Notes: a model not told the origin generated them from the letters alone. Numbered from the stretch's first letter, positions 9,688 to 46,378 are shown. The stretch is 64,000 nucleotides of DNA from an uncultured bacterium (GCA_964423505.1 CAYREX010000003.1:76817-140816), one strand, 5' to 3'. Made by a program: numbers and translations.

Positions 9688-10935
<1,248 letters not shown>

Positions 10936-29816: not shown

Positions 29817-29829
29817 GGGAGCCCCCGCC

Positions 29830-30246: not shown

Positions 30247-30297
30247 GCACCCCCGCCCGGCAGACCAGACTCCGCAGGCCTGACGGCATCTCCCGGG

Positions 30298-31497: not shown

Positions 31498-31527
31498 ATT
31501 GCCCTCCCACCTATACGGCTGCAGCAT

Positions 31528-31684
31528 AACAACGCCATTCCCAGCGTTAGTGTACGCATGTTCACTACCCCTTGTCAAGATACAAGCATTGACTAGCAGT
31601 AGCCGTGCAGCTATTCTCATGCAGCGTAACCAGGCAGCCGGCATACACAGCAGCCGCAGAATCATTGTTAGAGCTAAGGAAAAA
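31528..31684 (+). promoter_or_regulatory. Putative attI / cassette promoter (Pc) region of the integron
   Basis: Located between the intI start and the first cassette ORF. TTGACT (31589-31594), 17 bp, TATTCT (31612-31617) is oriented toward the cassettes. A GTTAGAG box at 31667-31673 resembles the attI1 GTTRRRY crossover site. A GTAC-N4-GTTC palindrome at 31551-31562 lies upstream of intI. Confidence 0.35.
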
Positions 31685-32638
31685 ATGGGAAACAGAAGTA
31701 GAGCTGAAATCTGGAAACAACAGAAATACAACAACTCCTGTGCTTGGGATTGCTTATCCATGCTTCTCAAAACGCAAGGAGTTGAAACAAGCTCCATCGA
31801 GCTTGTCGGTTCAACTCAGGTTCCCTACCAACTCCGTCTTCATCCAGAAGAGAATCGACTTACTGCAGGTATGCTCGTTCAAGCCGATGAAAATGTTAAT
31901 CTTGCACTCGGGCAATACGGCTTTAAACTTCAGAGCACTAGAGTATCGACAATCGCTGAATACGTTAAGCTCGCAGAGGAAACATTACTTTCTGGGGAAG
32001 CCTTCGTCACAAGTATTAAGAGACCAGATGATTTGCCAGGAAGACATGCCGTGGTTTTCACAGGATTAGAAGATTCAATCTTTAAAGGGCTTGATCCTGA
32101 TTGCCGTCTTGATCGAACTACGGACTATCACTACTCCGATGTTCATGATATCGTAACTCTTGATCTTGAGCAAGAAGAATTCCATCAAAGGGTTACTGGC
32201 GATACAGGGTATGTTCCACTTCTTGGTGTACTAGTTTCCTGCGACCCTTTCAAGATCAATCCTGAAATAATGAAAAATATGTTCAGTAGAAGTAAGGAAG
32301 CTCTTGATTTCTATGAGTCTGCTACAGGTGAACTTGACTTCCAGAGCTCCAAATCGATGCCTGTTATCTACAATGTGCTAAAACCTGTTTTATCTGACTT
32401 ACGAACAGCAATCGAAATCCGAGATGAGTATCAGAATCGAGATTCAGAGATTGCCTTATTCCTGAAAGAATTTGAAACCGGAATCCTGGAGTTTCGGAAA
32501 CTAACAAAGAATAATGAAGCAATACCGGAGAAACTTACCGAGAGATTGAGTGCTTCCCTTGCAAGATCTTACGAACTTCTTGAGAAGCACCTGTCTTTTG
32601 AGATGTACAGAAGAAAAGAGGCTCTAACCACTGAATGA
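31685..32638 (+). CDS. Cassette 1: putative papain-like (C39-like) cysteine peptidase
   Basis: AAGGA RBS then ATG at 31685. N-terminal QQKYNNSCAWDCLSMLLKTQG resembles the catalytic Cys block of C39/papain-fold peptidases. AT-rich codon usage. Stop lies inside attC1. Confidence 0.55.
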   Translation: MGNRSRAEIWKQQKYNNSCAWDCLSMLLKTQGVETSSIELVGSTQVPYQLRLHPEENRLTAGMLVQADENVNLALGQYGFKLQSTRVSTIAEYVKLAEETLLSGEAFVTSIKRPDDLPGRHAVVFTGLEDSIFKGLDPDCRLDRTTDYHYSDVHDIVTLDLEQEEFHQRVTGDTGYVPLLGVLVSCDPFKINPEIMKNMFSRSKEALDFYESATGELDFQSSKSMPVIYNVLKPVLSDLRTAIEIRDEYQNRDSEIALFLKEFETGILEFRKLTKNNEAIPEKLTERLSASLARSYELLEKHLSFEMYRRKEALTTE

Positions 32639-32700
32639 ACCTGTCACAGCCGTCAAGGTACGGGCTACGTAATACCTGTGCAGGTTATTCAGATTGTTCG
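32621..32700 (+). repeat. attC site 1
   Basis: GCTCTAACCACTGAATGAACCTG ... CTGTGCAGGTTATTCAGATTGTTCGGC. R''/L'' almost identical to attC11, 3' box GTTCGGC. Confidence 0.55.
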
Positions 32701-32717
32701 GCATAGGAAAGGGGATA

Positions 32718-33128
32718 GAAGTGCAGAAACTAATCACATGTGCGCTGATCGTTCTGACTTGTTCGATCGTGCTTGCGGGTGAGGTAGCGGACGAGGTGAC
32801 CTTCAGGACAGCGCAACCTGCTCCAACCGATATCATATCCTGGAGTTTCTTCTGGGTGATGCCTGAGATTGCACCGGATGCAACGCTTGAATATGCGGTG
32901 ATCCAGCCTGATGGTGAGGAGTATTTCCGGATGGCTATTCCTGCTGAAACTCCATCAGGAAGTCCAATTCGCTCGGATTTCCGTGAAGGTCTTGCCGGTG
33001 GCAATCCGGAGGTATTCAGCGGTCATAACATCCAGTTCACTTTCACAGTGGACATCGGCACAATCCAGTTCCCGGATGGTGCAACATTCCTCTTCGAGTT
33101 CACAGAAGTCGTCGAGGCAGTTAGATAG
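32718..33128 (+). CDS. Cassette 2: small secreted hypothetical protein
   Basis: GTG start after AAAGGGGA. Signal peptide LITCALIVLTCSIVLAG. Confidence 0.45.
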   Translation, partial: EVQKLITCALIVLTCSIVLAGEVADEVTFRTAQPAPTDIISWSFFWVMPEIAPDATLEYAVIQPDGEEYFRMAIPAETPSGSPIRSDFREGLAGGNPEVFSGHNIQFTFTVDIGTIQFPDGATFLFEFTEVVEAVR

Positions 33129-33134
33129 GGATTG

Positions 33135-33211
33135 CCGAACAACTGCATGAACCATCTACGAGCGGAGCTGTTTGAGCTAGGTGGTCGTAATGGTTATGCA
33201 GAGCGTTCGAA
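33135..33211 (+). repeat. attC site 2
   Basis: GCCGAACAACTGCATGAACCAT ... ATGGTTATGCAGAGCGTTCGAA. Family-1 attC, 3' box GTTCGAA. Confidence 0.6.
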
Positions 33212-33225
33212 GACGAGGAAGAAGC

Positions 33226-34074
33226 GATCGCGCTATGAAAGTCTCGTTCACACTGAAACCCGACCAGAAGTTGATTCTTCGCATTCTTCGCGAGGCGGGC
33301 AAAGTCCATTACCCAGTCCTACGCCGAGTTCTAGAGGCGATTGAGCATTCCGAGTCCGATTTCGACGCCTTCGTGAAGGCGGTCGCTGACAAAAGGGAGT
33401 TCGATTTCCGACCCGACTGGCAGAAACCAAAGCTGACGGAGTTGGAACGTACCCTCGAGGGATTGCTCTTCGTTGGTCTGATCGAACAGTCATTCCACTC
33501 GGATGGACAAATCAGAGTCTTCATGGGGGACACCGGCCTGACCAACAGTGACATTGCTCTCACGACCGAAGGCGAGAGAGTCGCCAAGAGCATCAAGGAG
33601 GAGCGACGCCTAATTCTGAGGCCGGCACCGACACGGCGCACCACAATCTTCGTCGCCTGTGCTTTCGGGCATGATGAGGTCGATTTGCTTTATGAGAAGC
33701 ACTTCCTTCCCGCGTGCCAAAGTGCGAACTACGAGGCAGTCCGAGTGGATATGACCGAACCGAAGCAGAGCATCACAGAAGCGATTCTCGAGGGTATTAC
33801 GGAGTGTGCTTGCGTCATCGCCGATCTGACATACGCTCGACCTTCCGTCTACTTCGAGGTCGGTCTTGCCCACGGCCTCGGAATTCCGCTGCTCTTGACG
33901 TGCAGATCAGATCACCACCGGGGCAAGGCGGACGACAAGAAGGTTCACTTTGACCTCGAACAGTACAAAATCAGTTTCTGGAAGCAAACACCCAAGGGTG
34001 ATTTCAGTTGGCCAAAGAACATGAAGCCAACTGCACGTCTGTCTGCATTGGTGCCAAAGCGGACGGGAGAATGA
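33226..34074 (+). CDS. Cassette 3: wHTH domain fused to a nucleoside-2-deoxyribosyltransferase-like (Ndt/TIR-like Rossmannoid) domain
   Basis: C-terminal TIFVACAFGHDEVDLLY...ECACVIADLTYARPSVYFEVGLAHGLGIPLLL matches the Ndt-fold signature (F-E-x-G-x-A, active-site Glu). The N-terminal about 110 aa are wHTH-like. ATG 33226 is the first start outside attC2. Confidence 0.6.
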   Translation, partial: DRAMKVSFTLKPDQKLILRILREAGKVHYPVLRRVLEAIEHSESDFDAFVKAVADKREFDFRPDWQKPKLTELERTLEGLLFVGLIEQSFHSDGQIRVFMGDTGLTNSDIALTTEGERVAKSIKEERRLILRPAPTRRTTIFVACAFGHDEVDLLYEKHFLPACQSANYEAVRVDMTEPKQSITEAILEGITECACVIADLTYARPSVYFEVGLAHGLGIPLLLTCRSDHHRGKADDKKVHFDLEQYKISFWKQTPKGDFSWPKNMKPTARLSALVPKRTGE

Positions 34075-34085
34075 CAAAGAAGCTT

Positions 34086-34172
34086 CGAACAAGAGCGTGG
34101 AGCTCGACTTCGGGTTAGCCGCGCCGCTTCGCTCTGCGGCACCCCCGAAGCGGCTCACGCTCGACGTTAGCT
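34086..34172 (+). repeat. attC site 3
   Basis: CGAACAAGAGCGTGGAGCTCGAC ... GCTCACGCTCGACGTTAGCT. Third sequence family, 3' box GTTAGCT. Confidence 0.55.
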
Positions 34173-34179
34173 GGAAGGG

Positions 34180-34953
34180 ATGCAAATGCCTATCGGCAGA
34201 AATCGTGTTTTTGAAATCATCGGAACAAAGCCAAGAAATCCACAATGGGCCTGGTGCGCAATTTCTCCGAACTACGAAAGAGTTGTATTTACTCTATGGG
34301 CTGATGAATTACTCGGTGACAGATATCTATTGTTTAGAGATCGACGAACCAATTCGCTAAACCGCAGCGAAAGAGATCTAAAAGAGAAGCTCGATCTTGC
34401 AATGGAGATGAACATTCCAGCTTATGGGTTGGTATGCGAAGCGCGCAATGTAAATGCACCAATAAGAAAAATAGGAAAGGTACATGCAGATTATCTTGTC
34501 AAATTGAGATTGCAGAAGGACGAGGAAGGGATTTATGCAATAGATATTGGCAAGGTTCAACTTGCTGAGATTGTGAGTGAAGAGAAGGCTAAGAGAGAGG
34601 CAACGGAGAATAACGGTCTTAACGATATAAATTCAATCCCACCAGGTTCTGAGTCTCCTGATAGAGCCCATGTTGAGGGCTTAATAGTCAAGAGGGACCC
34701 CAAAGTCAGGCGGTATGTTATTGAACAAGCTGAAGGGAAGTGTGAGTTCTGCGGGAAGCAAGGGTTCCAAATGGACTCAGGTAGGAGGTATCTAGAAGCT
34801 CACCATGTAATCACACTCTCTAATCAGGGAGCTGATACTGTGGAAAATGTTATTGCATTATGTCCGGAACACCATAGAGAAGCACATTATGGGGTGAATG
34901 CAGAGGAGTTGGAAGAACAATTCTTGGAATGTATTAACAACAGAAACGGGTAA
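34180..34953 (+). CDS. Cassette 4: HNH endonuclease with unknown about 150-aa N-terminal domain
   Basis: C-terminal CEFCGKQGF...LEAHHVITLSNQGADTVENVIALCPEHHREAHYG is a canonical HNH finger. The N-terminal domain is uncharacterised. Confidence 0.75.
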   Translation: MQMPIGRNRVFEIIGTKPRNPQWAWCAISPNYERVVFTLWADELLGDRYLLFRDRRTNSLNRSERDLKEKLDLAMEMNIPAYGLVCEARNVNAPIRKIGKVHADYLVKLRLQKDEEGIYAIDIGKVQLAEIVSEEKAKREATENNGLNDINSIPPGSESPDRAHVEGLIVKRDPKVRRYVIEQAEGKCEFCGKQGFQMDSGRRYLEAHHVITLSNQGADTVENVIALCPEHHREAHYGVNAEELEEQFLECINNRNG

Positions 34954-34984
34954 GAGTCGCCTTCTGGAGACACACTATTATCAG

Positions 34985-35032
34985 CTAACAACAAAATGCA
35001 GCAGAACTGCGTGCAGGTGTTCAGAAGTAAGT
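34985..35032 (+). repeat. Possible short attC site 4
   Basis: GCTAACAACAAAATGCAGCAGAACTGCGTGCAGGTGTTCAGA. R''-like GCTAAC, short imperfect stem, 3' GTTCAGA. Confidence 0.35.
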
Positions 35033-35162
35033 GTATCGCAGTCTGCTGATTTTGAGTGTTGTGGGATTCAATGGCCGGCCTGCTGGCTAGCCCGGCGAAG
35101 GATGACAAGAGGACAAAGAGAACATATTTATGGTGTAGGCAATGCGAACAGATAGACACGGG

Positions 35163-35366
35163 ATGAAAATGGAATACGGATCAAAATCAATGCCCGCCCT
35201 AATCGCCAGCCCAGAACTCTATGCATCCCTTGCGAAGAACAAGCAGACCTACTGGACAACAGGAACCGGCCCGGCTCGAAGGCACGGAGCTTGGAGTATA
35301 GAGCTGCTGGAATACTGCCATAGTGGAGTGAATGGTATCAAGAAATATATGAGATCAAAGGCATAA
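35163..35366 (+). CDS. Cassette 5: possible small ORF (67 aa)
   Basis: Only ORF in the about 500-bp cassette between attC4 and attC5. Weak. Confidence 0.2.
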   Translation: MKMEYGSKSMPALIASPELYASLAKNKQTYWTTGTGPARRHGAWSIELLEYCHSGVNGIKKYMRSKA

Positions 35367-35462
35367 CGACATAAAGAAAACAAGGATAAAGCAAAGAGAA
35401 CAAAGGACATAGGACAAAGACAGGAGCTTGGGCGCAGGCAAGCAAGGAGACAATAGCTGCCC

Positions 35463-35543
35463 ACAACAACAGCATGAACCAGGCGCGGGGGGCAGTTGGA
35501 CGTGCGAGGGTAGTTCCCGCGCTGGTTATGCTGGATGTTATGT
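35463..35543 (+). repeat. attC site 5
   Basis: CACAACAACAGCATGAACCAGGCG ... CGCGCTGGTTATGCTGGATGTTATGT. Family 1, 3' box GTTATGT. Confidence 0.6.
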
Positions 35544-35562
35544 GAGATAGGGAGTATACGAA

Positions 35563-36243
35563 ATGGAAACAGTAGACATCATTTTAGAAGTACTGTTGTT
35601 ACTCGGTTTGCTGTATCTTGCTCTCTTCAAATCGTATTTTAAGGAGAAAGGGAAAAACCTAGCAACTCGGGAAGATATCCAGGAGATCACTTCTCTTGTT
35701 GAGACCTTAAGAGCAAAAATAGAATACTCATTGCAGGCGAAATTGGTACTAAGGCGAGAAGAGCATGAATCACTATTACACTACTACTCTTGTCTATCTA
35801 AGTGGATTCACACAATATCGAGCTTCAGTTTTGCAGGAATAACATACGATACATTACACATGATTAATGAAAGAATCAGTAGTGTGAACATATGCTATTC
35901 GGAAACGATATTGGCATTTTCAAAAGTAGAACTACTGGTTAATAATGATAAGTTGAGAGCAGAGGGCCATGGTCTGATTAGAAGAGTACTAAAATATCAA
36001 AATAGAACAATTAAGATGTGTGGTGACTATCATCTCTTATGTCTTGAGATCCATGCGGAAGAGAAAAGATTAAAGGATGGTGAGCGTGTTGAGGAATGGG
36101 CTAAAGTAATTGCAAAGCAACAAATAGCAATAAAGAAATACTATGAAGAGCAAGCTAGCGAATATGGAACTCTGTTAAGGTACATAATACCACATATGGA
36201 GACTATATCAGCACATTTAGAAGAGATCGTTAAGGAGGAGTGA
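35563..36243 (+). CDS. Cassette 6: hypothetical protein with N-terminal TM helix
   Basis: AT-rich ORF with TM helix ILEVLLLLGLLYLALF. Follows attC5 by 20 bp. Confidence 0.5.
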   Translation: METVDIILEVLLLLGLLYLALFKSYFKEKGKNLATREDIQEITSLVETLRAKIEYSLQAKLVLRREEHESLLHYYSCLSKWIHTISSFSFAGITYDTLHMINERISSVNICYSETILAFSKVELLVNNDKLRAEGHGLIRRVLKYQNRTIKMCGDYHLLCLEIHAEEKRLKDGERVEEWAKVIAKQQIAIKKYYEEQASEYGTLLRYIIPHMETISAHLEEIVKEE

Positions 36244-36299
36244 TAACTACTAATCACAAGAATAAATGCAATGAGATGTGGGCAAAACAGAGACCAGCA

Positions 36300-36379
36300 C
36301 ATAACCACAGCATGAACCAGCCGCGGGGCAGTTGAATATGCGAGGTTGATTCCCGCGCTGGTTATGCTGAGTGTTACAG
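36300..36379 (+). repeat. attC site 6
   Basis: ACCACAGCATGAACCAGCCGCGG ... CGCGCTGGTTATGCTGAGTGTTACAG. Family 1. Confidence 0.6.
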
Positions 36380-36523
36380 AAGTAGGACGGCGGCGTCTGA
36401 GAACATAGAGCAAACAGAATCGGGCACATCGGAAATCGGGCCCATAGAACAAGAAAAAGCCGCCGCCGTGAAAAAATAGGAAACCGGAGATCGGACAACC
36501 GGACAGCGACAGAGGAGACAGAG

Positions 36524-36600
36524 CCTGTAACAATGGGCTGTAGCTGAATCGCGCGACTGTACCGTCAACCTGTGCAATCAGCTAAGCCCAAGCGTTGTGG
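36524..36600 (+). repeat. attC site 7
   Basis: GTAACAATGGGCTGTAGCTGAATCGC ... CAATCAGCTAAGCCCAAGCGTTGTGG. Family 2, like attC8. Confidence 0.55.
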
Positions 36601-36626
36601 GTTGAAATGAAAAGAGGCATTCTAAG

Positions 36627-36869
36627 TTGGGAGGACAGCGTATGAAAGCGAAGAAGATATACTGGGCGAACCCCCATTCTGATGGAGGTTGGGCAGTTCA
36701 GAAATCTAGATTTGGAGGAACGATATCCAAGCATTCTACCCAATCCAGTGCATGGAAAACTGCTCGCCGCATGGCTTGCGGTACGGAATCAGATGCAATA
36801 CTGCAGGACCAGCAGAAGAGAATTGTGACAAGACATACATACTCAAATGAGACTTTAGAAGAAGATTAA
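36627..36869 (+). CDS. Cassette 8a: DUF2188-like small protein
   Basis: KKIYWANPHSDGGWAVQKSRFGGTISKHSTQSSAWKTARRMA fits the DUF2188 pattern as I recall it. Confidence 0.5.
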   Translation: MGGQRMKAKKIYWANPHSDGGWAVQKSRFGGTISKHSTQSSAWKTARRMACGTESDAILQDQQKRIVTRHTYSNETLEED

Positions 36870-36870
36870 T

Positions 36871-37731
36871 ATGCGAGCATATATACCTCTTGCGATAGTC
36901 TATGACTTCGATGGAACACTTGCTCCTGGCAACATGCAGGAAAGAGATTTCATTCCAGCAATTGGCATGACACAACAAGCGTTCTGGGATGAAGTCAATA
37001 GTGAAGCAAAACAACATCAGGCAGATAATATCCTCGTATATATGAAATTGATGCTAGATAAAGCTAGACAGGCTCAAGTAACAGTTCAAGAGGATGATTT
37101 CAAAGACTATGGACGTCGCCTGTCATTCTACGAAGGGATCTTGCCTAATGAAGAACAGTCAGATCCAGGTTGGTTCGCGAGAATCAATTATTATGGCAGA
37201 GGTGCTAGCATAGCAGTCAAGCACTATGTTGTCTCTTCAGGTATCCGAGAGATGATAAAGGGTACACGAATCGCAAACCAGTTTGAGGCGATTTTTGCAT
37301 CCTCATTTTGCTATGAACATCATGGTATTGCTGTATGGCCAGCCTTGGCTCTTAATTACACATCCAAGACGCAATATCTATTTAGGATTAATAAGGGCTG
37401 TCTTGATGTTAGCGAACATGTGCAAATTAACAAATACTTACCCGAAAATGATAGACCAGTACCGTTTAGGAACATGATCTATATTGGCGATGGAGCTACT
37501 GACATTCCTTGTATGCGAGTAGTAAAGGACAGGGGAGGTTGTACAATTGCTGTGTATAAGCCCCACACTCCTGGAGCCAGGGCCAATGTTCAACAACTTG
37601 TTAAAGAAGGTAGGGCAAACTGCATTGCATCAGCGAAATACAACGAAGGCAGTACTCTTGATAAGATAGTCAAGACATACATAGATCATCTGCAGTTCTA
37701 CTATGCATATAAGCGCTTGCAAGAAACATAG
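36871..37731 (+). CDS. Cassette 8b: HAD-superfamily hydrolase (phosphatase-like)
   Basis: HAD motif I VYDFDGTL, motif II VVSSG, motif IV IYIGDGATDIPCM. Starts 2 bp after the DUF2188 stop, in the same cassette. Confidence 0.7.
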   Translation: MRAYIPLAIVYDFDGTLAPGNMQERDFIPAIGMTQQAFWDEVNSEAKQHQADNILVYMKLMLDKARQAQVTVQEDDFKDYGRRLSFYEGILPNEEQSDPGWFARINYYGRGASIAVKHYVVSSGIREMIKGTRIANQFEAIFASSFCYEHHGIAVWPALALNYTSKTQYLFRINKGCLDVSEHVQINKYLPENDRPVPFRNMIYIGDGATDIPCMRVVKDRGGCTIAVYKPHTPGARANVQQLVKEGRANCIASAKYNEGSTLDKIVKTYIDHLQFYYAYKRLQET

Positions 37732-37733
37732 AG

Positions 37734-37818
37734 CCCACAACAAGCGGCTGTAGCGGAATTGCTGCCGGCCTGGGGGGGGGCTGAGTCTATCGCAATCCGC
37801 TAAGCCACAGCGTTATGC
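37734..37818 (+). repeat. attC site 8
   Basis: CACAACAAGCGGCTGTAGCGGAATTGC ... GCAATCCGCTAAGCCACAGCGTTATGC. Family 2. Confidence 0.6.
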
Positions 37819-37837
37819 GTAAATACGAACCGGAGAA

Positions 37838-38602
37838 ATGGAGATCATGACAATACCGGATGAAACGAAAATACTGGATGAAGATGAAGTCCAGCGTCTT
37901 CTAGGGTTAATGCTAGGCGCTCTCCCTTATACTGTAAAGGAAATGTTAGTACTGAAAGATATCAATCCGGAGGATTCGATTCGTATTAGATCGCTCTCAA
38001 AATCTTTTCAGAAAGCCCGTGAAACTGCCAAGGAAATGCTTAAGGATACATCCAGCAAAACCAAGATTCCTCAATATCGAATCCGAGCAATCGAAGAAGG
38101 CAAGTTGGCTGAGATCAAACCGGAATTCCTAAAACAGCTAAGCCGATACTTCGGACTAGATGAATGGTGTTCTCGTTGGGCAACCGTGAACACAGAACTA
38201 GCATCTGGACTTGGGATGTTTTCCTGGGTAGAACTCGGGAAACGAAGAAATGGGAAAGGATTGCCCGTATCTGTATTGTCAGATTCAGAGAAACAGCTTA
38301 AGGATTTCGTGGAATCCCGCCGACCTGAAGAGCACATAAGATCGGAATTGGATATTGGTTATCGGATCACAGGTAAAAGTTTCGAGATATTTGAAATCCG
38401 GCCAAGATGGAAGCAACCGGACATTACACAAGAAATCTCAGTTGCCAAGGCAACCTATGTTAAAAGTAGAAAAATATGGAAACTCTATTGGATGCGCGCT
38501 GATTTGAAATGGCACAGGTATGATCCTCTACCTGACACAAAATCGCTCCAGGATGTGCTTAACGAAATTGGCGAGGATCCGTATTGCTGTTTTTGGGGAT
38601 GA
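37838..38602 (+). CDS. Cassette 9: XRE-type HTH fused to a DUF3024-like C-terminal domain
   Basis: Central IRAIEEGKLAEIKPEFLKQLSRYFGLD (Cro/C1-type HTH). The C-terminal W-rich block KIWKLYWMRADLKWHRYDPL...DPYCCFWG resembles DUF3024. Confidence 0.5.
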   Translation: MEIMTIPDETKILDEDEVQRLLGLMLGALPYTVKEMLVLKDINPEDSIRIRSLSKSFQKARETAKEMLKDTSSKTKIPQYRIRAIEEGKLAEIKPEFLKQLSRYFGLDEWCSRWATVNTELASGLGMFSWVELGKRRNGKGLPVSVLSDSEKQLKDFVESRRPEEHIRSELDIGYRITGKSFEIFEIRPRWKQPDITQEISVAKATYVKSRKIWKLYWMRADLKWHRYDPLPDTKSLQDVLNEIGEDPYCCFWG

Positions 38603-38606
38603 AAGA

Positions 38607-38685
38607 GCGCATAACCAACGCATGAACCAGACGCTTGTAAGGGAATAGGTTAGGGTTACAGCGCTGGTTACGCGTATTGTTAAGT
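38607..38685 (+). repeat. attC site 9
   Basis: GCGCATAACCAACGCATGAACCAGACG ... CAGCGCTGGTTACGCGTATTGTTAAGT. Family 1. Confidence 0.6.
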
Positions 38686-38706
38686 AGCGATAGAAGGAAG
38701 AGCATA

Positions 38707-39381
38707 ATGGTACCTATTCTGTATGGGATAGCGAGTGGAATCGCATTACTGTTAATCAAGATGTTATGGGTTAAGGGACATTATAGATTCAAGATGAAGA
38801 TAGTGAATAATTCATTTCCTGTAAGCGGTGCAAATGTAGCAGTTATTCTTGGCAGTAAGTACTTCGAGAGCGAGAGCTCAAGGCAACTGCTATATGTACC
38901 GCTCACGGGTGTATCAGCATATGCAAAGCTATCAACATTGCTCAGTAAGTATGGATCCGATGTTAGTTTCTATGTGGATAAGACCGTACCAAAGGATAAG
39001 CGCATTACCTTTGAGATATGCATAGGTGGAAAGCATAGTAGCGTTCGCACAGAGCACTACTTGAAGAAGCATTGTTCTCGGATGTTTCACCCCAACGGTA
39101 GTACTCTAACTCCCAACGAAGCGCGAATTGTAAAACTAGACAGAACGTTCGAAGATGGCAAGAAGAAGTCAGTCCTCATTATCTATGGGCAGAACCGATT
39201 TGACACCATGTGTGCAATAGCCTACTTCTGCGAGTACTTCGAAGAACTGGTGCGGAAGCAGTTTGCTAGAGATCATGCAGCAATCCGTCTGGAGACAGAT
39301 CCTCAACTTGGGCATTATGATGCGGAGTATAAGGCCGATGACACACACTTGATAGACCTATGTCAAGTAGATGCTACTTAA
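38707..39381 (+). CDS. Cassette 10: hypothetical protein with N-terminal TM anchor
   Basis: ATG 38707 is the first start outside attC9. TM helix ILYGIASGIALLLIKMLWV. Confidence 0.5.
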   Translation: MVPILYGIASGIALLLIKMLWVKGHYRFKMKIVNNSFPVSGANVAVILGSKYFESESSRQLLYVPLTGVSAYAKLSTLLSKYGSDVSFYVDKTVPKDKRITFEICIGGKHSSVRTEHYLKKHCSRMFHPNGSTLTPNEARIVKLDRTFEDGKKKSVLIIYGQNRFDTMCAIAYFCEYFEELVRKQFARDHAAIRLETDPQLGHYDAEYKADDTHLIDLCQVDAT

Positions 39382-39454
39382 CAAGCGGCTGCAGCGGCAT
39401 TGCGGTAGGGTAGCAACCGGTATAGGTGCAATCCGCTGAGCCTTAGTGTTAGCA
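39378..39454 (+). repeat. attC site 10
   Basis: TAACAAGCGGCTGCAGCGGCATTGC ... GCAATCCGCTGAGCCTTAGTGTTAGCA. Family 2, nearly perfect stem. Confidence 0.6.
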
Positions 39455-39469
39455 TGGAAATGAGGAAGA

Positions 39470-40543
39470 ATGGGAAAAGCAGCGATTTTCCTTGGTGCTG
39501 GCGCTTCTAAGGCGGAGGGTGCTCCTCTGCAAGGAGAGTTGTTCACTGAATACTTTGCATCTGATGCATTCAAGAATAGCTATAAAGATATTGACAGAGA
39601 ACTTGCAACGTTTTTCCTCTGTAACTTCAGAATTGACCTAGACCATCAAGACATATCATCGATTAGCTTTCCCACATTCGAGGAAGTTCTTGGTTTGGTT
39701 GATCTTGCCATTCTTAGAAAAGAATCATTCCGAGAGTTTGAGATTGAGAATAGAGCATCCAACAGTGGGCGCTTAAGATTCATAGGCCAGTATCTTGTAT
39801 TTCTGTTGGCAAGGGTTCTAGATGATAAGCTGAAGGGTCACAACGGCATTCATCAGAAATTGGTACGAACACTACATGATACTGGTATTCTAAGAGATGT
39901 GACTTTTATAACTACAAATTATGACATACTTATCGACAATGCATTAGTAAAGCTGGAAAAGCATGATGTTGATGTTGACTACGGAATTGAGTTCCGTAAT
40001 TTCGGAACTCAAAACAATTGGCGACGCCCAAGAATGGATAAGAAGGTATCACTATACAAACCGCATGGATCGTTAAATTGGCTGCTATGCCCAACTTGCA
40101 GTGAACTCGATATTACACCGAAAGAGAAGGGAGTTGTCAGACTTATCTCTGATTTTGCAAATGCAACATGTCCAGAGTGCGAAAGTGTTTATGTGCCTCT
40201 CATTGTACCTCCGATATATTACAAAGATATGAGCAATGTATTCCTGAGTTCAATATGGAATCGAACTGATGCTTCTTTACGGAAAGTGGACCATGTAATC
40301 TTCTGCGGATATTCCTTTCCTGATGCTGATATGCATATTAAGTATTTAATGAAAAGAGCTCAGACTAATCGTAAAAACCCTCTTAGAATTACGGTTATGA
40401 ACTATCACCCAGGAAAAACAGAGTCAGAATCCAGAAGTGAAGAGAATAGGTACAAGCGGTTCTTAGGAAAACAAGTGAAGTATACAGATAAATCATTTGA
40501 ATGGTTTGCAGATAATCCTATGGATGTTTTGGGAAATTCTTGA
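39470..40543 (+). CDS. Cassette 11: standalone SIR2-like protein (SIR2_2 / DUF4020-type, predicted NAD+-consuming effector)
   Basis: N-terminal MGKAAIFLGAGASKAEGAPL (GAGxS motif of the SIR2_2 clade) and ...KPHGSLNW downstream. 357 aa, single gene between attC10 and attC11. Confidence 0.7.
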   Translation: MGKAAIFLGAGASKAEGAPLQGELFTEYFASDAFKNSYKDIDRELATFFLCNFRIDLDHQDISSISFPTFEEVLGLVDLAILRKESFREFEIENRASNSGRLRFIGQYLVFLLARVLDDKLKGHNGIHQKLVRTLHDTGILRDVTFITTNYDILIDNALVKLEKHDVDVDYGIEFRNFGTQNNWRRPRMDKKVSLYKPHGSLNWLLCPTCSELDITPKEKGVVRLISDFANATCPECESVYVPLIVPPIYYKDMSNVFLSSIWNRTDASLRKVDHVIFCGYSFPDADMHIKYLMKRAQTNRKNPLRITVMNYHPGKTESESRSEENRYKRFLGKQVKYTDKSFEWFADNPMDVLGNS

Positions 40544-40544
40544 T

Positions 40545-40622
40545 GCTAACCACTGCATGAACCAGCTACGAACAGATCTGATTGACCCGGGGTAGTCGTG
40601 CTGGTTATACAGAATGTTAGGC
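40545..40622 (+). repeat. attC site 11
   Basis: GCTAACCACTGCATGAACCAGC ... GTGCTGGTTATACAGAATGTTAGGC. 3' box GTTAGGC fits the GTTRRRY consensus and the 5' box is close to its reverse complement. Confidence 0.65.
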
Positions 40623-40641
40623 AGGAAAGGAGATACATGCC

Positions 40642-41070
40642 ATGTCGCTACACGCATCCGAGATTCTGGCATGTCCCAAGTGCGGACATAAACAGGCAAC
40701 TCTCATCTGGCAGTCGCTGAATGTTACCCTTGACCCCGGCCAGAAGCAGAACCTCTTTGATGGAAAGATAAATGTACTTGAATGCACGCAGTGCGGGAAC
40801 AAGGCATTCGTCGATGCACCTTTTCACTATCACGACATGAATCTCGAGTTTTACGTGCGGTATGTTCCCTTGGCATCTCTAGAGCATCCAGAGACATTTG
40901 ACGACTTTCTTGCGAATGGATTTCCATCCATGGAAGAGAACGAAGATATGGGAATACCGGCGGATTCATACTTGCGCACTATCCATATTGTTTTTGATAT
41001 GGGTGAATTGGTGCGCTATGTGATGTTCCGCGAATGTCTGGCCAACATCAAGCAAGGTAAGAAGGCCTAA
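40642..41070 (+). CDS. Cassette 12: CpXC-domain zinc-ribbon protein
   Basis: CPKCGHKQ ... CTQCGNKAF pairs characteristic of CpXC proteins. Confidence 0.6.
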   Translation: MSLHASEILACPKCGHKQATLIWQSLNVTLDPGQKQNLFDGKINVLECTQCGNKAFVDAPFHYHDMNLEFYVRYVPLASLEHPETFDDFLANGFPSMEENEDMGIPADSYLRTIHIVFDMGELVRYVMFRECLANIKQGKKA

Positions 41071-41126
41071 CCATCGAATAGAGGGTATCGGCGCATACGC
41101 GCCGAACCGTCATTGACACGTTCGGC
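41065..41126 (+). repeat. attC site 12 (short)
   Basis: GCCTAAC (41065-41071) ... perfect hairpin GCCGAACCGTCATTGACACGTTCGGC ... 3' box GTTCGGC. Confidence 0.45.
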
Positions 41127-41192
41127 TACCAGAACCGGACTTGCATCTCAGAGAGAGTATATGTATCTACATAGTAGAGACGGGAGGATACT

Positions 41193-41435
41193 ATGCTTGC
41201 ACGAATCCAGAAATGGGGCAACAGCCTAGCGGTTCGAATCCCCAAAGCCTTCGCGAAGGAAATGAACGTGTCTGATGGTGGAGCTGTCAACATGACAATC
41301 GATGACGGAAAGATCGTCATCAGTCCTGAGATAGAGCAGGTCTACCGACTGGATGACCTTCTGGAGGAGATAACCTCGGAGAATCTTCATGCTGAGGTCG
41401 AGTCCGGAGAGGTAGTTGGGCAGGAGATTTGGTGA
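41193..41435 (+). CDS. mazE: Cassette 13a: MazE/AbrB-type antitoxin
   Basis: IQKWGNSLAVRIPKAF (SpoVT/AbrB swapped-hairpin motif). Overlaps mazF by 7 bp. Confidence 0.75.
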   Translation: MLARIQKWGNSLAVRIPKAFAKEMNVSDGGAVNMTIDDGKIVISPEIEQVYRLDDLLEEITSENLHAEVESGEVVGQEIW

Positions 41436-41776
41436 AGACAGATGAGTGCTGCCCTGGGAGGGGGGATATCGTCTGGCTCTCCTTCACACCCCAGGCAGGC
41501 CATGAACAGGCAGGCATACGTCCTGCACTAGTCCTGTCTCCCAAATCGTACAACCGGAAAACAGGTCTTGCATTGTACTGTCCGGTTACGACAGTAGTGA
41601 AAGGCTATCCGTTCGAGGTTGCCATTCCACCTGACCTTGAGGTTTCCGGAGTTATTCTATCGGACCAAGTGAAGAGCCTGGACTGGAGAGCACGAAAGGC
41701 AGAGTTAATCTGCAGACTCCCAGATGCCGTGACCAGAGAAGTACTCGGCAAGGTGGGCACTCTTGTTCGGGACTAG
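41429..41776 (+). CDS. mazF: Cassette 13b: MazF/PemK-family endoribonuclease toxin
   Basis: GDIVWLSFTPQAGHEQAGIRPALVLSPKSYNRKTGLALYCPVTT matches PemK/MazF. Confidence 0.8.
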   Translation: MVKTDECCPGRGDIVWLSFTPQAGHEQAGIRPALVLSPKSYNRKTGLALYCPVTTVVKGYPFEVAIPPDLEVSGVILSDQVKSLDWRARKAELICRLPDAVTREVLGKVGTLVRD

Positions 41777-41779
41777 AGA

Positions 41780-41859
41780 GCCGAACAGCAGCATGAACCA
41801 GCCAACAGGGCAGAGCTGATCGAACGGGTGTTCCGTGCTGGTTATGCTGAGTGTTCGAG
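41780..41859 (+). repeat. attC site 13
   Basis: GCCGAACAGCAGCATGAACCAGCC ... CGTGCTGGTTATGCTGAGTGTTCGAG. Family 1. Confidence 0.6.
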
Positions 41860-41908
41860 TTCCGGCATGACTTGACAACCACCACCATAGAGGTATAGAT
41901 ATTATACC

Positions 41909-42169
41909 ATGGTGTTCGAATACGATGCTCGTAAGAGCAAGAGAAACTTGGAGAAGCACGGGATCGACTTCGAGGAGTCGCAGCTTCTCTGGGATGATCC
42001 GGACCTGCTGGAGATTCCGGCAAGGACCGAAGATGAAACGCGATTCATGGTGATCGGTCGGATAGACAGCTCCCATTGGTCTGGGATCATCACCTATCGC
42101 GGAGAGGCGGTTCGAATCATCTCCGTCCGCAGATCCCGTAACGAGGAGGTGGTGCTGTATGAAGGCTAA
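41909..42169 (+). CDS. brnT: Cassette 14a: BrnT (DUF497) ribonuclease toxin
   Basis: MVFEYDARKSKRNLEKHGIDFEESQLLWDDP matches the BrnT N-terminus. Confidence 0.75.
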   Translation: MVFEYDARKSKRNLEKHGIDFEESQLLWDDPDLLEIPARTEDETRFMVIGRIDSSHWSGIITYRGEAVRIISVRRSRNEEVVLYEG

Positions 42170-42386
42170 GGACCTGGACAAGAAGTTCGATGACGGTGAG
42201 GATGTCCTCAGATACCTCGAACTCAGCAAGGCCCGTCGTGTTGAGCAGGAGCAGAAGCGAGTCAATGTGGACTTCCCCATTTGGATGATTCACTCGCTGG
42301 ACAAGGAAGCAAAGCGACTGGGTATTCCCAGGCAGTCCCTGATCAAGATGTTGATCGCCAGGCATATCGAGGAAGCCAGAGCATAG
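42159..42386 (+). CDS. brnA: Cassette 14b: BrnA (CopG/RHH-like) antitoxin
   Basis: Overlaps brnT by 11 bp. C-terminal ribbon-helix-helix-like IPRQSLIKMLIARHIEEA. Confidence 0.7.
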   Translation: MKAKDLDKKFDDGEDVLRYLELSKARRVEQEQKRVNVDFPIWMIHSLDKEAKRLGIPRQSLIKMLIARHIEEARA

Positions 42387-42391
42387 AGACT

Positions 42392-42462
42392 CGAACAAGC
42401 GGCTGCATTGGTCTTGCAGCATTGCGACACCTGACAGAGGACAACGCATAGTGCTTCTTAGT
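42392..42462 (+). repeat. attC site 14 (diverged)
   Basis: CGAACAAGCGGCTGCATTGGTCTTGCAGCATTGCGAC... has a family-2-like 5' half and a degenerate 3' half. Confidence 0.4.
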
Positions 42463-43116
42463 GGACACCCAGATCCGCGCACTTCTGAGAGGAGCCCGAG
42501 CACCAGATATTCCTGAGGTTGAGTACCCACTCTATCTCATGCGGTCTTCCGTGCCCAGGCTCCGGTGGAAGGATGTTATGGCGGCAAGCATAATGCAAGA
42601 GCACGGGCGGAGCGTCCGTAGCCTTGCGCGGGATCTGGGTGTCCATTGACAGGAGTATCTGGTATTCGAGTCTATCACGGTCCTGGATACCGGGTCTGCT
42701 TCAAGAATCGGGGGAAGAGCCTGGTGATCATATTGGCCGGTGGTGACAAGCGGACACGAAAGAAGATCGAGAAGGCGTTGCGCCTGGCACGAGATCTATC
42801 GGAGAGAGAGAAGAGAATTAGCAGGACCAAGACTACTCGATTCGAAACCGCTGAGCATCGTCGAGCTCCAGAGAAAATGGCCGCACATCTTGAAGCATGC
42901 CTTGAGGAGTCCAACGGAGATGCGGCGTTTGTAGCGAAGGCACTCGGAGATATCGCGAAAGCAAAGGGAATGACGCAGGTTGCACGCGATGCTGGTCAGT
43001 CTCGAGAGCCTGTACAAGGCTCTGTCGGGCAAACGTACACCCCGGTTCGACACCCTTCTGAGAGTAGCACATGCCCTCGGGATGGAGCTTCACGCGGCAC
43101 CACTGAATCGCTGAAA
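42461..43116 (+). pseudogene. Cassette 15a: decayed higB-like (addiction-module killer, COG3657) / higA-like (antidote) toxin-antitoxin pair
   Basis: IRVYHGPGYRVCFKNRGKSLVIILAGGDKRTRKKIEKALRLARDL matches the killer C-terminus. It runs without a stop into the antidote sequence KTTRFETAEH...MAAHLEACLEESNGDAAFVAKALGDIAKAKGMTQVARDAG. The antidote C-terminus (SLYKALSGKRTPRFDTLLRVAHALGMELHAAPLNR, ending 43116) is in a different frame after a 2-nt loss in a GAGAG run near 43003. The killer N-terminus is also out of frame. Confidence 0.5.
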
Positions 43117-43193
43117 TCGACTGGCCAACAACAGCATGCAGCTGGAAAGCTGCTGATGTTGAGCGTTCGGCCTTATGAAATGAGAGGTGCAGC

Positions 43194-43610
43194 ATGGGAG
43201 CTATAGCAGACTCGATCATCGCGTACGCGAAACCGCTGCTCGACGAAGCTGATGGTTCACTCGAGGACATGAACAATGCCTTGTCACTTGCTCAGCTATG
43301 TTGGAATCTCGCACTGTTACCGGAAAAGGAACGTGACGCAAGACTCGCAAAGATGCAGTCGGCCCTCGCGATGGATGACACGGAATTCGAGGATTTCCGG
43401 CAATCGATCGTCCTGCCGATGATCCAGAGGCACCATGACATGTTTCCTAACATGCCCAGGCACGGGTCTGCGAAGGCGTCGAGAGCAAGGGTGCAACCGC
43501 AGCGACGGGCGGCGGCAACGCCGCAGGCAAAGAGATATCCTGGAACTGCACGCAACGCGCCGTGCCCGTGCAATAGCGGAAAGAAGTACAAACGTTGTTG
43601 CGGACGGTAG
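43194..43610 (+). CDS. Cassette 15b: UPF0149/YecA-like protein with C-terminal SEC-C zinc motif
   Basis: C-terminal APCPCNSGKKYKRCCGR is the SEC-C metal-binding motif. Confidence 0.6.
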   Translation: MGAIADSIIAYAKPLLDEADGSLEDMNNALSLAQLCWNLALLPEKERDARLAKMQSALAMDDTEFEDFRQSIVLPMIQRHHDMFPNMPRHGSAKASRARVQPQRRAAATPQAKRYPGTARNAPCPCNSGKKYKRCCGR

Positions 43611-43651
43611 GCTGGCATCGTTGTCCACGGAACGCGTGCGAAGAGCTGGCC

Positions 43652-43733
43652 AAACAAGCGCCTGCAGTTGAACGGGCACGTCCGGCCGCTTCGCGGGGTC
43701 GCGCACCCGTCTACTGAGGCGCACCGTTATGCC
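43652..43733 (+). repeat. attC site 15 (GC-rich variant)
   Basis: CAAACAAGCGCCTGCAGTTGAACGGGCACG ... CGCACCCGTCTACTGAGGCGCACCGTTATGC. Family-2-like ends, 3' box GTTATGC. Confidence 0.45.
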
Positions 43734-43774
43734 GCTTCTGGAGAGGCAACGCTAACTCGGAGGAAGCTGTTCGC

Positions 43775-44578
43775 ATGAAGCTCGCAGACGTTAGCCCCGA
43801 GACAGAGGTCACGTTTCTGCACTGCCTGCATGATGAGAGGCGGGACGACCCCCGAGTGATGGAGATGCGGCGCCGGTGGTTTCACGCTCAGCGGGATCAC
43901 GGGCTCCGCGGAAAGGTCCTCGTGCTGGACACGGGGGAAGTTGCCGGGCTCTGCCAGTACATGCCTATCGAGAGAACCTTCATGGTGGGCAGCGCTCTTC
44001 TCGCGATTCTGTGTATCTGGGTTCATGGGTACGAGCATCTCGTCGGGAACGTCCAGGGCAATGGGTACGGCAGGTATATGCTGGAGTCGATCGAGCGTGA
44101 CGCCCGAGAGAGCGGGAAGCTGGGTGTATCTGCCTGGGGAATGGACTTCCCCCACTGGAATCCTGTGTCCTTCTACGAGCATATGGGCTACACCAGGGCC
44201 GACAAGTCGGGCATGGCGGTCCTCGTGTGGAAGCCCTTCTCAGAGAGCGCCGTAGCGCCCCGTTTCCTTCGCCCCGTGCGCCGCCCGGTGGGCCGCCCGG
44301 ACAAGGTGTCGCTGGCAGTCTTTGTCAACGGGTGGTGCATGGGTTCCTGCGAGCAGTCCGTACTGGCACGCGAGGCGGTGGACGGGCTCGAGTGCTTCGT
44401 AGACTACATGGAGCTCGACGGCTCGGACCCGGACGTTCAGCGTTCGTGGGGTATCTCCGACGGTGTCTATCTCCAGGGTGAGCCATACCGTCCGCATGAG
44501 CCGCCATGGACGAGCGAAGTCCTCAGGCGCGATCTGCTCGATCGCATCGAGATTGAGGGCGGGGGAGGCAGGGGATAG
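43775..44578 (+). CDS. Cassette 16: GNAT-family acetyltransferase with C-terminal Cys-containing extension
   Basis: N-terminal acetyltransferase fold (...VLVLDTGEVAGLCQYMP...GNGYGRYMLESIERDARESGKLGV...). C-terminal about 100 aa with a VNGWCMGSCEQ motif. Confidence 0.55.
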   Translation: MKLADVSPETEVTFLHCLHDERRDDPRVMEMRRRWFHAQRDHGLRGKVLVLDTGEVAGLCQYMPIERTFMVGSALLAILCIWVHGYEHLVGNVQGNGYGRYMLESIERDARESGKLGVSAWGMDFPHWNPVSFYEHMGYTRADKSGMAVLVWKPFSESAVAPRFLRPVRRPVGRPDKVSLAVFVNGWCMGSCEQSVLAREAVDGLECFVDYMELDGSDPDVQRSWGISDGVYLQGEPYRPHEPPWTSEVLRRDLLDRIEIEGGGGRG

Positions 44579-44699
44579 AACGAAGCGGAGTAACCAGCGT
44601 GTGCAGCCGACGCGTCTGTCACGGCGGCTGCAGGCGAAGCTTCGCCGCAGGCATCCGCCGAGCCAGCCCCCGGGCTGATCATGTTCCTTCGGGGCACCA
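44578..44699 (+). repeat. Possible attC site 16 (long, GC-rich)
   Basis: AACGAAGCGGAGTAACCAGCG ... internal palindrome TGCAGCCGACGCGTCTGTCACGGCGGCTGCA ... GCATCCGCCGAGCC ... GTTCCTT. The ends resemble the family-2 attCs. Confidence 0.35.
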
Positions 44700-44800
44700 C
44701 GTTGGAGCCCTGGGTCTGCGGATACCTCGGGTACGGGACGGGGCATCCTTCTATCCTGGATGTCTCGAGAGGAGGATGCCGAGCGATCGGGCTCTGGACG

Positions 44801-45463
44801 ATGAGCGATGAGATCCGCGTTCAGCGGGGCTTTCCGGACGAGTACCGTCCGAAGGCGGCGGAGCTGTACGATGCCGCCTTCGGAGCCAAGCTCTCGGCGG
44901 CCATGCCCGACCCCGTCTCGCGCAAGGCCGTTCTGGAGGAGGGATTGAACCCCCGGTTCTCCCTGGCCGCGCTGAGCGGTGGTGAGATGGTCGGCATCGC
45001 CGGCTTCAGGACTGAGTCGGGATCTCTGACGGGCGGGATATCGTACGGACTGCTCAGGGCGCGACTCGGGTTCCTCGGGGCGATTCGAGCTGTCCCCCTC
45101 CTTGTGCTGCTCGAGCGGAAGCAGACACCGGGAGAGCTGCTGATGGACGGGATAGGCGTCTCGCCCCGGATGCGCGGCAGGGGCATCGGGACCAGGCTCC
45201 TCCGCGGTCTACTGGAGTATGCGGCAGAGGAGGGGTACCTGTCGGTCCGCCTCGATGTCATCGACACGAACCGTGGGGCAAGGCGCCTGTACGAGCGCGT
45301 CGGGTTCGTGCCCGTGAGAGTCCAGAGGTTCGGATACCTGAAACGGCTGCTCGGCTTCGGGGCGGCTACGCGGATGGAGTACCGCCTCGGCTCCCGGGCC
45401 CGACCGGGCGCGGCACCAGCACCTGGCGGCCCCGTGCCGGCAGTGGAAGGATCGAAGGAATGA
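44801..45463 (+). CDS. GNAT-family N-acetyltransferase
   Basis: Acetyl-CoA-binding motif IGVSPRMRGRGIGTRLLRGLLEYAAEEG...RLYERVGF. Start moved to MSDEIRV. Confidence 0.7.
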   Translation: MSDEIRVQRGFPDEYRPKAAELYDAAFGAKLSAAMPDPVSRKAVLEEGLNPRFSLAALSGGEMVGIAGFRTESGSLTGGISYGLLRARLGFLGAIRAVPLLVLLERKQTPGELLMDGIGVSPRMRGRGIGTRLLRGLLEYAAEEGYLSVRLDVIDTNRGARRLYERVGFVPVRVQRFGYLKRLLGFGAATRMEYRLGSRARPGAAPAPGGPVPAVEGSKE

Positions 45464-46332: not shown

Positions 46333-46378
46333 AAGCAGCCTTCTCCGCGTGTCGGCTTCGTGCTTTCCGCCGAGAGGG

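Follow-up and report, generated by a model that had tools for sequence, protein, structure and literature searches.

How does a block of DNA with a GC content near 0.46 come to lie in a bacterial genome that is otherwise at about 0.68, and does its composition record the order in which its parts were acquired? This question is raised by a stretch of 64,000 nucleotides from an uncultured bacterium (assembly GCA_964423505.1, contig CAYREX010000003.1, positions 76817-140816), here called the window, which contains an integron integrase gene (intI), an attachment site (attI) and a long array of gene cassettes bounded by attC sites. The first-pass annotation of this sequence had described a GC gradient along the array, from AT-rich cassettes next to attI to host-like cassettes at the far end, and had suggested as its cause recent capture from low-GC sources together with amelioration of the older cassettes or, alternatively, an AT-rich proximal block that is kept transcriptionally poised.

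We found that the pattern is not a gradient. It is a heterogeneous plateau followed by a short ramp and then by the boundary of the array. On balance we lean towards a joint account, in which un-ameliorated imports lie proximally, the cassettes further out have been resident for a long time and are in decay, and the last step up in GC marks the chromosome itself.

Identity and extent of the integron

The product of intI was found to match the NCBIfam model for integron integrases (TIGR02249) with 329.5 bits against a curated cut-off of 265, and it contains the Pfam domains Phage_integrase and Phage_int_SAM_4 (SAM-like). Its score with the class 1 equivalog model NF011946 (253 against a cut-off of 435) is below threshold and the integrase is therefore not IntI1. 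The protein corresponds to P0001 at 100% identity and its closest named relatives, at 54-68% identity, belong to Candidatus Fermentibacteria, Aegiribacteria and Sabulitectum. The open reading frame (ORF) is intact and the catalytic region can be aligned to that of the relatives; the enzyme may be active in excision and integration. The array runs in the direction opposite to intI from an attI crossover box located 170 nt from the intI start, and the R'' box of the first attC (CTCTAAC) is the exact reverse complement of this box (GTTAGAG). No family model exists for attI, and the identification covers the crossover box only. The array start at 31668 given in the first-pass annotation is exactly the first base past the crossover. 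Two promoter-like sites with consensus matches were observed in the spacer between intI and attI, facing in opposite directions, where 0.2 would be expected from shuffles. The element is a sedentary chromosomal integron in a Candidatus Fermentibacteria genome of about 68% GC.

Fifteen attC sites of 49-89 nt were identified, all with invariant AAC and GTT boxes (R'' RYYYAAC and R' GTTRRRY). Their stems co-vary, with 95% of cells paired and compensatory changes in 13 of the 15 stem pairs, and the structure score was reached by none of 500 shuffles. The two families that had been distinguished by eye (A and B) are variants of one architecture with a co-varying stem, and both are present in the AT-rich part and in the GC-richer part of the array. 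A covariance model (R1) was built from these 15 sites alone and run over the whole window with filters off, where it returned only its own training sites; the proximal attCs, as part of this training set, score 27-71 bits. The first bases of cassettes 1-14 are the exact reverse complement of the R'' box of their own attC, and those of cassette 16 match with one mismatch, which indicates that these units were once circular. Past 43732 no attC was found with R1 in the window even at E <= 10 with filters off, and the model does recognise foreign attCs in related loci, as described below. Since, in addition, the downstream genes GNAT2 and DUF1835 overlap and lack an attC, the array proper extends from 31668 to 43726 and consists of 16 cassettes.

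Composition along the array

Sliding-window GC is about 0.68 on either side of the array, enters a trough at about 31.5 kb, stays at 0.39-0.54 up to about 42 kb and reaches 0.69 by about 45 kb. The host flanks have a GC content of 0.681 and 0.686, and the array from 31668 to 42420 has 0.461, which confirms that the genome is otherwise at about 68% GC and that the low-GC block is real. The preference for A/T-ending codons was also borne out for cassettes 1-12, whose pooled GC content at third codon positions (GC3) is 0.43 compared with 0.89 +/- 0.04 in 30 host ORFs. The gradient itself has to be given up: GC shows no trend with position in cassettes 1-12 (rho = -0.16), the value for cassettes 1-14 is 0.12, and only the last units rise (Table 1). 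The range of 40-48% that had been ascribed to cassettes 1-14 is too narrow, as the actual values are 0.38-0.55 with six cassettes above 0.50.

The four distal true cassettes have a higher GC than the proximal twelve (Mann-Whitney p = 0.007, or about 0.02 when corrected for the split point), a contrast that involves four cassettes only and a split point picked after the data had been seen. As for the distal cassettes of host-like GC, the last units do rise, but GNAT2 and DUF1835 are most likely not cassettes and GNAT1 is followed only by a relic of an attC. The GC-enriched attC variants reported from the distal end come down to attC16 (0.68 GC), whereas attC15 is only 49 nt long with 0.57 GC and attC14 is collapsed. 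Overall, attC GC was observed to correlate with cassette GC (rho = 0.66, p = 0.007), and a rise of attC GC with position in the array was not significant.

Evidence for amelioration of the BrnTA cassette

We compared the cassettes with an empirical equilibrium line that relates GC3 to the mean GC content at first and second codon positions (GC1 and GC2) in the host-side genes of 62 genomes (r = 0.81). The BrnT/BrnA toxin-antitoxin (TA) cassette, here BrnTA, has a residual of +0.20 on this line (0.04 to 0.32). None of the residuals of MazEF (-0.05), the SEC-C cassette (-0.03) and GNAT1 (+0.08) is significant, and the proximal cassettes (-0.06) show no upward shift. A third-position shift toward host composition was observed for BrnTA and not for cassettes 1-12, MazEF or SEC-C.

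An ortholog of BrnTA is found in the array of SDBS01003373.1 (L124+L097), hereafter SDBS, whose host side has 0.59 GC and whose intI is 62.5-67% identical to that of the window, depending on the aligner. The two cassettes share 79% of their nucleotides, with 96% protein identity for BrnA and 83% for BrnT, and further orthologs in L152 and L153 share 73%. Among the third positions that differ between the window and SDBS, 40 have G or C in the window and 17 show the reverse (p = 0.003); the resident intI is biased likewise (51:23). At conserved residues BrnTA has a synonymous identity of 0.61 and intI one of 0.50, which means that BrnTA has been diverging for almost as long as intI. In the four copies, GC1 (0.55-0.58) and GC2 (0.33) are constant while GC3 is 0.70 in the window (host GC 0.68), 0.57 in SDBS (0.59) and 0.47 in L152 (0.53). 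The L153 copy has a GC3 of 0.44 with an uncertain host GC of about 0.58-0.61 and is off this trend, so that the relation between BrnTA and host GC is not clean. The L152 and L153 copies differ very little, which points to an exchange between their hosts at a more recent date. No synteny of the flanks was found between the window and SDBS by tblastx, and there is therefore no support for vertical inheritance of the integron locus as a whole.

The proposed amelioration of older cassettes can accordingly be kept for BrnTA, where the evidence is direct (GC3 of 0.70 against 0.44-0.57 and the 40:17 excess), and the decay of distal attCs and genes is circumstantial evidence in its favour. It finds no support in MazEF and SEC-C, which lie on the line, and does not apply to GNAT2 and DUF1835, which are most likely host genes.

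The SDBS array was also found to rise in GC distally (0.39, 0.41, 0.48, 0.45 and 0.54, followed by host genes at 0.57) and it ends in three TA cassettes. TA cassettes gather at the distal end in both the window and SDBS. In several Fermentibacteria arrays BrnTA lies near a TA cassette of the ParD/ParE or RelE type, and in SDBS also near HigBA. The two cassettes are directly adjacent in SDBS and in L153, where ParDE comes straight after BrnTA, and they are a few cassettes apart in L152, where the ParDE-type cassette is on the far side of an IS110 insertion. The BrnTA, ParDE/RelE and HigBA neighbours may constitute a conserved 'anchor' block.

Decay at the distal end and the array boundary

The attCs and the genes at the distal end were both observed to be decaying. 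Cassette 15 aligns with the HigBA cassette of SDBS at 71% nucleotide identity from 42677 onward only, and it has a stop in the killer frame and a frameshift in the antidote near 43005. A clean 5' truncation of this cassette was considered and rejected, as the SDBS alignment reveals a full-length decayed cassette. After GNAT1, an attC-like relic at 44588-44646 scores 4.8 bits (E = 0.26 in a search of 271 nt) and is absent from the whole-window results; it retains the TAAC box and the inner stem and has lost the G of the R' box. The low scores of attC14 (1.6 bits) and of this relic, together with the pseudogenised cassette 15, indicate a long residence of the distal units.

GNAT1 has an 83% identical homolog for which nucleotide homology is confined to 43754-44610, with a different upstream gene and a weak attC-like spacer of 5.7 bits. 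The unit was found behind a different neighbour in L150 and L151. As the homology is limited to the unit and the neighbour differs, GNAT1 behaves as a discrete mobile unit and, judging by these sequence features, is probably a fossil seventeenth cassette. In either context the GC of GNAT1 is about 0.61-0.63, and its more distant relatives are located in regions of 0.60-0.70 GC; the high value is probably a property of the family and was not gained here. GNAT2 and DUF1835 have GC3 values of 0.80 and 0.87, within the host range, and most likely belong to the flanking host chromosome.

Homologs of GNAT1 were also noticed in L086 (1-15512) and L087 (1-14074), within GC-rich (0.60-0.70) co-directional runs of small genes that encode methyltransferases, GNATs, APH and nucleotidyltransferases and are separated by spacers of about 50-350 nt. 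We considered these runs as integron arrays and rejected them: the layout is cassette-like, but the spacers contain neither attCs detectable by R1 nor R''/R' boxes. They may be islands without attCs or may carry a type of attC that is invisible to R1.

Related arrays and the source of the AT-rich cassettes

In 16 of the 18 related loci with an assembled array, the 2 kb next to attI are AT-richer than the host side, with a mean gap of 0.066. Hosts of low GC also have AT-rich arrays, with 0.36 versus 0.47 in L005 and 0.32-0.36 versus 0.47 in L053. Array GC increases with host GC across the loci (slope 0.60, r = 0.67). The gap of 0.22 in the window is the largest of the 19 arrays compared; the trend predicts an array GC of 0.536 and about 0.44-0.46 was observed. 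Within other arrays the trend with position is inconsistent, since L053 is flat and both L078 and L043 fall distally.

The attC types of the window recur in its Fermentibacteria relatives L011, L010, L005 and L006, whose hosts have 0.44-0.63 GC. Searches of the first 80 loci with exact patterns of families A and B gave no matches and the covariance model was needed. R1 detected 51 attCs, each on the strand and side expected, in 80 intI-anchored loci of other genomes, 159 in 62 metagenome contigs and 26 in two further arrays. It also detects attCs from other phyla and is thus not lineage-specific. The 62 contigs come from a metagenome scan for the main attC type (family A) and have a median GC of 0.455; four of them carry intI, which in three cases is 58-62% identical to that of the window. 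These observations support an AT-rich cassette pool that is shared lineage-wide.

The nearest relative of the SIR2 cassette is 71% identical, and SIR2 relatives are taxonomically scattered. The proteins of cassettes 2, 6, 8b and 12, which were those possible to look up, have no relatives at 90% identity beyond the assemblies of this sample. No shared cassettes were found when the 21 array proteins were compared with the 80 intI-anchored loci by tblastn (E <= 1e-5), where the best match was a 19-residue SEC-C motif. The recent capture from low-GC sources put forward in the first-pass annotation is supported indirectly by the lack of a GC3 upshift in the proximal cassettes and by the recurrence of their attC types in AT-rich arrays, although no donor copy of any of them was recovered.

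Most contigs among the 80 loci stop 150-500 nt upstream of intI, where the array begins. Metagenome-assembled genomes therefore lose arrays systematically, and the window is unusual in having its 12-kb array fully assembled. Another long array is present in L152, a Fermentibacteria contig of 139.7 kb, where it exceeds 20 kb and has 17 attCs. It is interrupted by insertions with an IS110-family transposase and a DDE_3 transposase (10482-11745 and 17631-18704), the first of which lies directly after BrnA.

Two relatives are annotated from archaea. An integron integrase with 48% identity to IntI (P0093) is assigned to Candidatus Hadarchaeum, and a member of the BrnA cluster at 90% identity or more (P0370) is assigned to a metagenome-assembled genome of Candidatus Lokiarchaeota (MBD3157807.1). 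These annotations could reflect sharing of cassettes and integrons across domains, as reported (PMC9668308), or contamination during binning.

Weighing the explanations

An assembly or binning chimera, in which the sequence from 31.5 to 42.5 kb would come from a different low-GC organism, had been named at the outset as what would overturn the first-pass interpretation. It could be suspected from the abrupt step of 0.22 in GC at attI, from the many related contigs that break at arrays, and from breaks in the separately assembled Logan contigs at 33162, 42592 and 44739-44759. Those contigs, however, match the window at 100% at the junctions. One of them (29491-33162) joins a host gene, intI, attI and the AT-rich cassettes 1-2 and ends inside attC2; L082 and L083 cover 42592-44759 and, from a second sequencing run, 43305-44755; another spans about 44739-46771, and a 7.9-kb contig carries cassettes 8 and 12. 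The block is also flanked on both sides by high-GC sequence within one 305-kb NCBI contig. As the AT-rich block begins exactly at a canonical attI, has attC families A and B in common with the distal, GC-richer part and is matched by these contigs, a chimera is very unlikely. We give as little credence to the proposal that the AT-rich proximal block, near the Pc promoter, is kept transcriptionally poised. This idea draws on a single promoter-like site facing the array (31589-31617), whereas the low GC spans about 10 kb, far past promoter-proximal reach, sits in the third codon positions of unrelated genes and is found throughout arrays of more than 20 kb in relatives such as L152.

Two other explanations make composition a matter of cassettes in general or of their origins. 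If cassettes were intrinsically biased toward AT in every host, whether by selection, by relaxed selection combined with a universal GC-to-AT mutation bias, or because AT-rich foreign DNA is cheaper or silenced, composition would be uninformative on donors or age. Mobile and defence DNA reportedly tends to have a lower GC content than its host, at least five of the proximal cassettes have matches to defence or candidate-defence models, and the AT-richness of arrays in 16 of 18 related loci, low-GC hosts included, is what such a bias would give. We nevertheless find it improbable, because array GC climbs with host GC and the GC3 of BrnTA is highest in the GC-richest host, so that host pressure acts and a purely intrinsic set-point is insufficient; the gap of the window, at 0.22, goes beyond the trend and fits recent import better than equilibrium. 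A mixture of donors, in which each cassette keeps the composition of its source and the GC-richer ones are distal by chance, with no amelioration in situ, is an unlikely explanation too, though one with a number of observations behind it. MazEF, SEC-C and GNAT1 lie on the equilibrium line, the relatives of GNAT1 have 0.60-0.70 GC in other genomes, cassettes 3 (0.55) and 7 (0.53) are proximal yet GC-richer, other arrays have no consistent positional trend, and the correlation of attC with cassette GC is expected if each pair evolved together elsewhere. Mixed donors do not account for the directional 40:17 excess of BrnTA over its ortholog from a lower-GC host, with a bias as in intI, or for its GC3 of 0.20 over the line, and both the decayed distal attCs and genes, which indicate long residence, and the contrast of the distal four with the proximal twelve cassettes (corrected p about 0.02) speak against them.

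The joint account that we favour starts from the integron identity, array boundaries, composition, attC sharing, BrnTA drift and distal decay demonstrated above. As in integrons generally, new cassettes would enter at attI, and the order of insertion may serve as a proxy for age. Cassettes 1-12 would then be un-ameliorated imports from a lineage-shared AT-rich pool of about 0.36-0.50 GC, carried by Fermentibacteria-type integrons with the same attC types in hosts of much lower GC, from which specific cassettes may have been donated. Many of these proximal cassettes resemble genes for defence against phages. The distal end would consist of long-resident cassettes, namely three TA modules and the SEC-C protein, whose attCs and genes are decaying. 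The synonymous sites of BrnTA appear to have drifted toward the high GC of the host, and other cassettes might have ameliorated in the same way. GNAT1 would be the probable fossil cassette of a GC-rich gene family, and the last GC step (0.69) would be the chromosome past the array with GNAT2 and DUF1835.

Several points weigh against this account. Amelioration is seen in one cassette only, and the equilibrium line has a residual standard deviation of 0.08, which gives the test low power. MazEF, SEC-C and GNAT1, being on the line, could stem from donors of 55-63% GC, and for GNAT1 in particular the GC of its relatives in other genomes (about 0.61-0.70) makes its own value probably a family trait. 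The BrnTA comparison is unpolarised, so that either lineage may have changed, and the L153 copy has its low GC3 despite large neighbours of 0.58-0.61 GC. The distal contrast is subject to the small number and the choice of split point given above, a donor copy was not found for any AT-rich proximal cassette, and the Logan contigs, which derive from the sample that also gave the window, are an independent assembly, not independent data.

The Logan contigs of the two runs end or start at 42592 and at 44739-44759, with an overlap of about 20 nt only at 44739-44759, just upstream of GNAT2 and DUF1835. These break points suggest branches in the assembly graph, that is, population variants in what is joined there, and the variable region may in fact end there.

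Cassette contents and neighbouring genes

The proximal cassettes were found to encode a type IV restriction HNH protein, PDC-S34 (HAD), PDC-S43 (DUF3024), SIR2, a TIR-like protein, CpXC and DUF2188. PADLOC defence or candidate-defence models match at least five of them (cassettes 3, 4, 8, 9 and 11; 33232-40543), with 84 bits for the type IV methyl-directed restriction HNH, 383 for PDC-S34 (HAD-like) and 154 for PDC-S43 (HTH+DUF3024); the others are SIR2 and, weakly, a TIR-like effector. These matches agree with the view of chromosomal integrons as stores of anti-phage systems (bioRxiv 10.1101/2024.07.02.601686). No Rfam family matched anywhere in the array at E <= 0.1, the ORF-less cassette 7 included. 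This cassette may be empty or a remnant, or its content may be a small RNA, a small peptide or a promoter.

On the minus strand, a gene at 46379-49993 converges on the end of the array. It encodes a protein of 1204 aa with three or four long internal repeats, made of recurring 'STYGTPVPSDDW...DDDGL..IPFDPGDGFSVER' blocks, and a C-terminal region that resembles a secretion-sorting domain.

Table 1. Features of the integron and its distal flank, in window coordinates
Feature	Position	Strand	GC	GC3	Description
intI	30298-31497	-	0.64		Integron integrase, 399 aa
Divergent promoter-like hexamer pairs	31549-31617				intI-attI spacer; plus strand 31589-31617 toward cassettes, minus strand 31578-31549 toward intI
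attI crossover box	31667-31673	+			GTTAGAG; G/TT at 31667/31668; cassette 1 begins at 31668
Cassettes 1-12	31668-41120	+	0.38-0.55	0.43 (pooled)	AT-rich plateau; GC of each in order 0.42, 0.52, 0.55, 0.43, 0.51, 0.38, 0.53, 0.44, 0.44, 0.45, 0.40, 0.48
G/TT boundaries of cassettes 1-12	32696, 33205, 34166, 35058, 35537, 36373, 36594, 37812, 38679, 39448, 40616, 41120				
Cassette 7	36374-36594		0.53		221 bp, attC-bounded, no ORF of 60 aa or more
Cassette 13 (MazEF)	41121-41853	+	0.528	0.57	MazE/MazF TA; Pfam MazE_antitoxin and PemK_toxin
attC13	41780-41859				64.8 bits
Cassette 14 (BrnTA)	41854-42427	+	0.529	0.70	BrnT/BrnA TA; Pfam BrnT_toxin and CopG_antitoxin
attC14	42390-42427				Collapsed 38-nt remnant after BrnA; left half and short palindrome, 1.6 bits
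Cassette 15	42428-43165	+	0.557		Decayed HigB-like killer and HI1420-type antidote; Pfam dnstrm_HI1420
attC15	43123-43171		0.57		Short (49 nt), 44.8 bits
Cassette 16 (SEC-C)	43166-43726	+	0.586		SEC-C motif protein; Pfam SEC-C
attC16	43649-43732		0.68		59 bits; last intact attC
Unit 17 (GNAT1)	43727-44646	+	0.628	0.78	GNAT1 at 43775-44578; GC3 at lower edge of host range; probable fossil cassette
GNAT2 and DUF1835	44801-46332	+	0.691	0.80 and 0.87	GNAT2 44801-45463, DUF1835 45460-46332; 4-bp overlap, no attC between or after; most likely host chromosome

Comparison with known systems

The integron of the window resembles sedentary chromosomal integrons such as the Vibrio cholerae superintegron and the ilvD-linked integron of Xanthomonas in having a chromosomal intI divergent from co-oriented and mostly promoterless cassettes, attCs that are alike within the array, TA cassettes, and many cassettes of unknown or defence function. 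That a GC-rich host can carry AT-rich cassettes is in itself not new: Xanthomonas integron regions have a lower GC than their high-GC host (PMC3826837, PMC2246292), as in the window. TA cassettes have been discussed for their part in array stability (PMC13108822). Unlike those integrons, the window belongs to a Candidatus Fermentibacteria host, has a short array of 16-17 cassettes with two or three attC sub-types where those have one species-specific repeat, shows a compositional gap of 0.22 and has its TA cassettes at the distal end.

The sequence and structure of attCs are conserved within bacterial lineages and can indicate the taxon from which cassettes come (Ghaly et al. 2021, PMC8352920). 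The attC types of the window likewise recur in other Fermentibacteria arrays, whereas R1, built from the window alone, is not lineage-specific in the manner of those taxon-specific families. A full-text literature search for 'Fermentibacteria' with 'integron' returned no papers, and literature searches on GC gradients by position, or on amelioration, within integron arrays found nothing specific.

In the amelioration model of Lawrence and Ochman, foreign genes are said to drift toward host composition, fastest at third codon positions. BrnTA behaves in the same way, with constant GC1 and GC2 and a GC3 that is raised in the GC-richer host. The setting differs in that an ordered array with a known insertion point makes position an independent proxy for age, and in that a clear signal comes from one cassette only.

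Implications

An extreme compositional island in a metagenome-assembled genome is here a genuine integron and not a binning error, and bin-refinement tools based on GC would tend to drop such regions. Candidatus Fermentibacteria joins the lineages with well-characterised chromosomal integrons, in which one attC pool serves hosts of 0.44 to 0.68 GC. BrnTA is a rare direct case in which synonymous sites differ with host GC while the protein is unchanged.

A wider idea, testable with more genomes, is that array position and GC3 offset together form a record of residence time. We put forward tentatively that these arrays are a compositional stratigraphy, in which a conserved distal TA block (BrnTA, ParDE-type and HigBA) predates the divergence of the Fermentibacteria genera, ameliorates slowly and anchors the array while AT-rich and defence-rich cassettes turn over proximally. 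If this were true, the position of a cassette and its GC3 offset would provide a clock for dating acquisitions and estimating turnover rates in uncultured bacteria.

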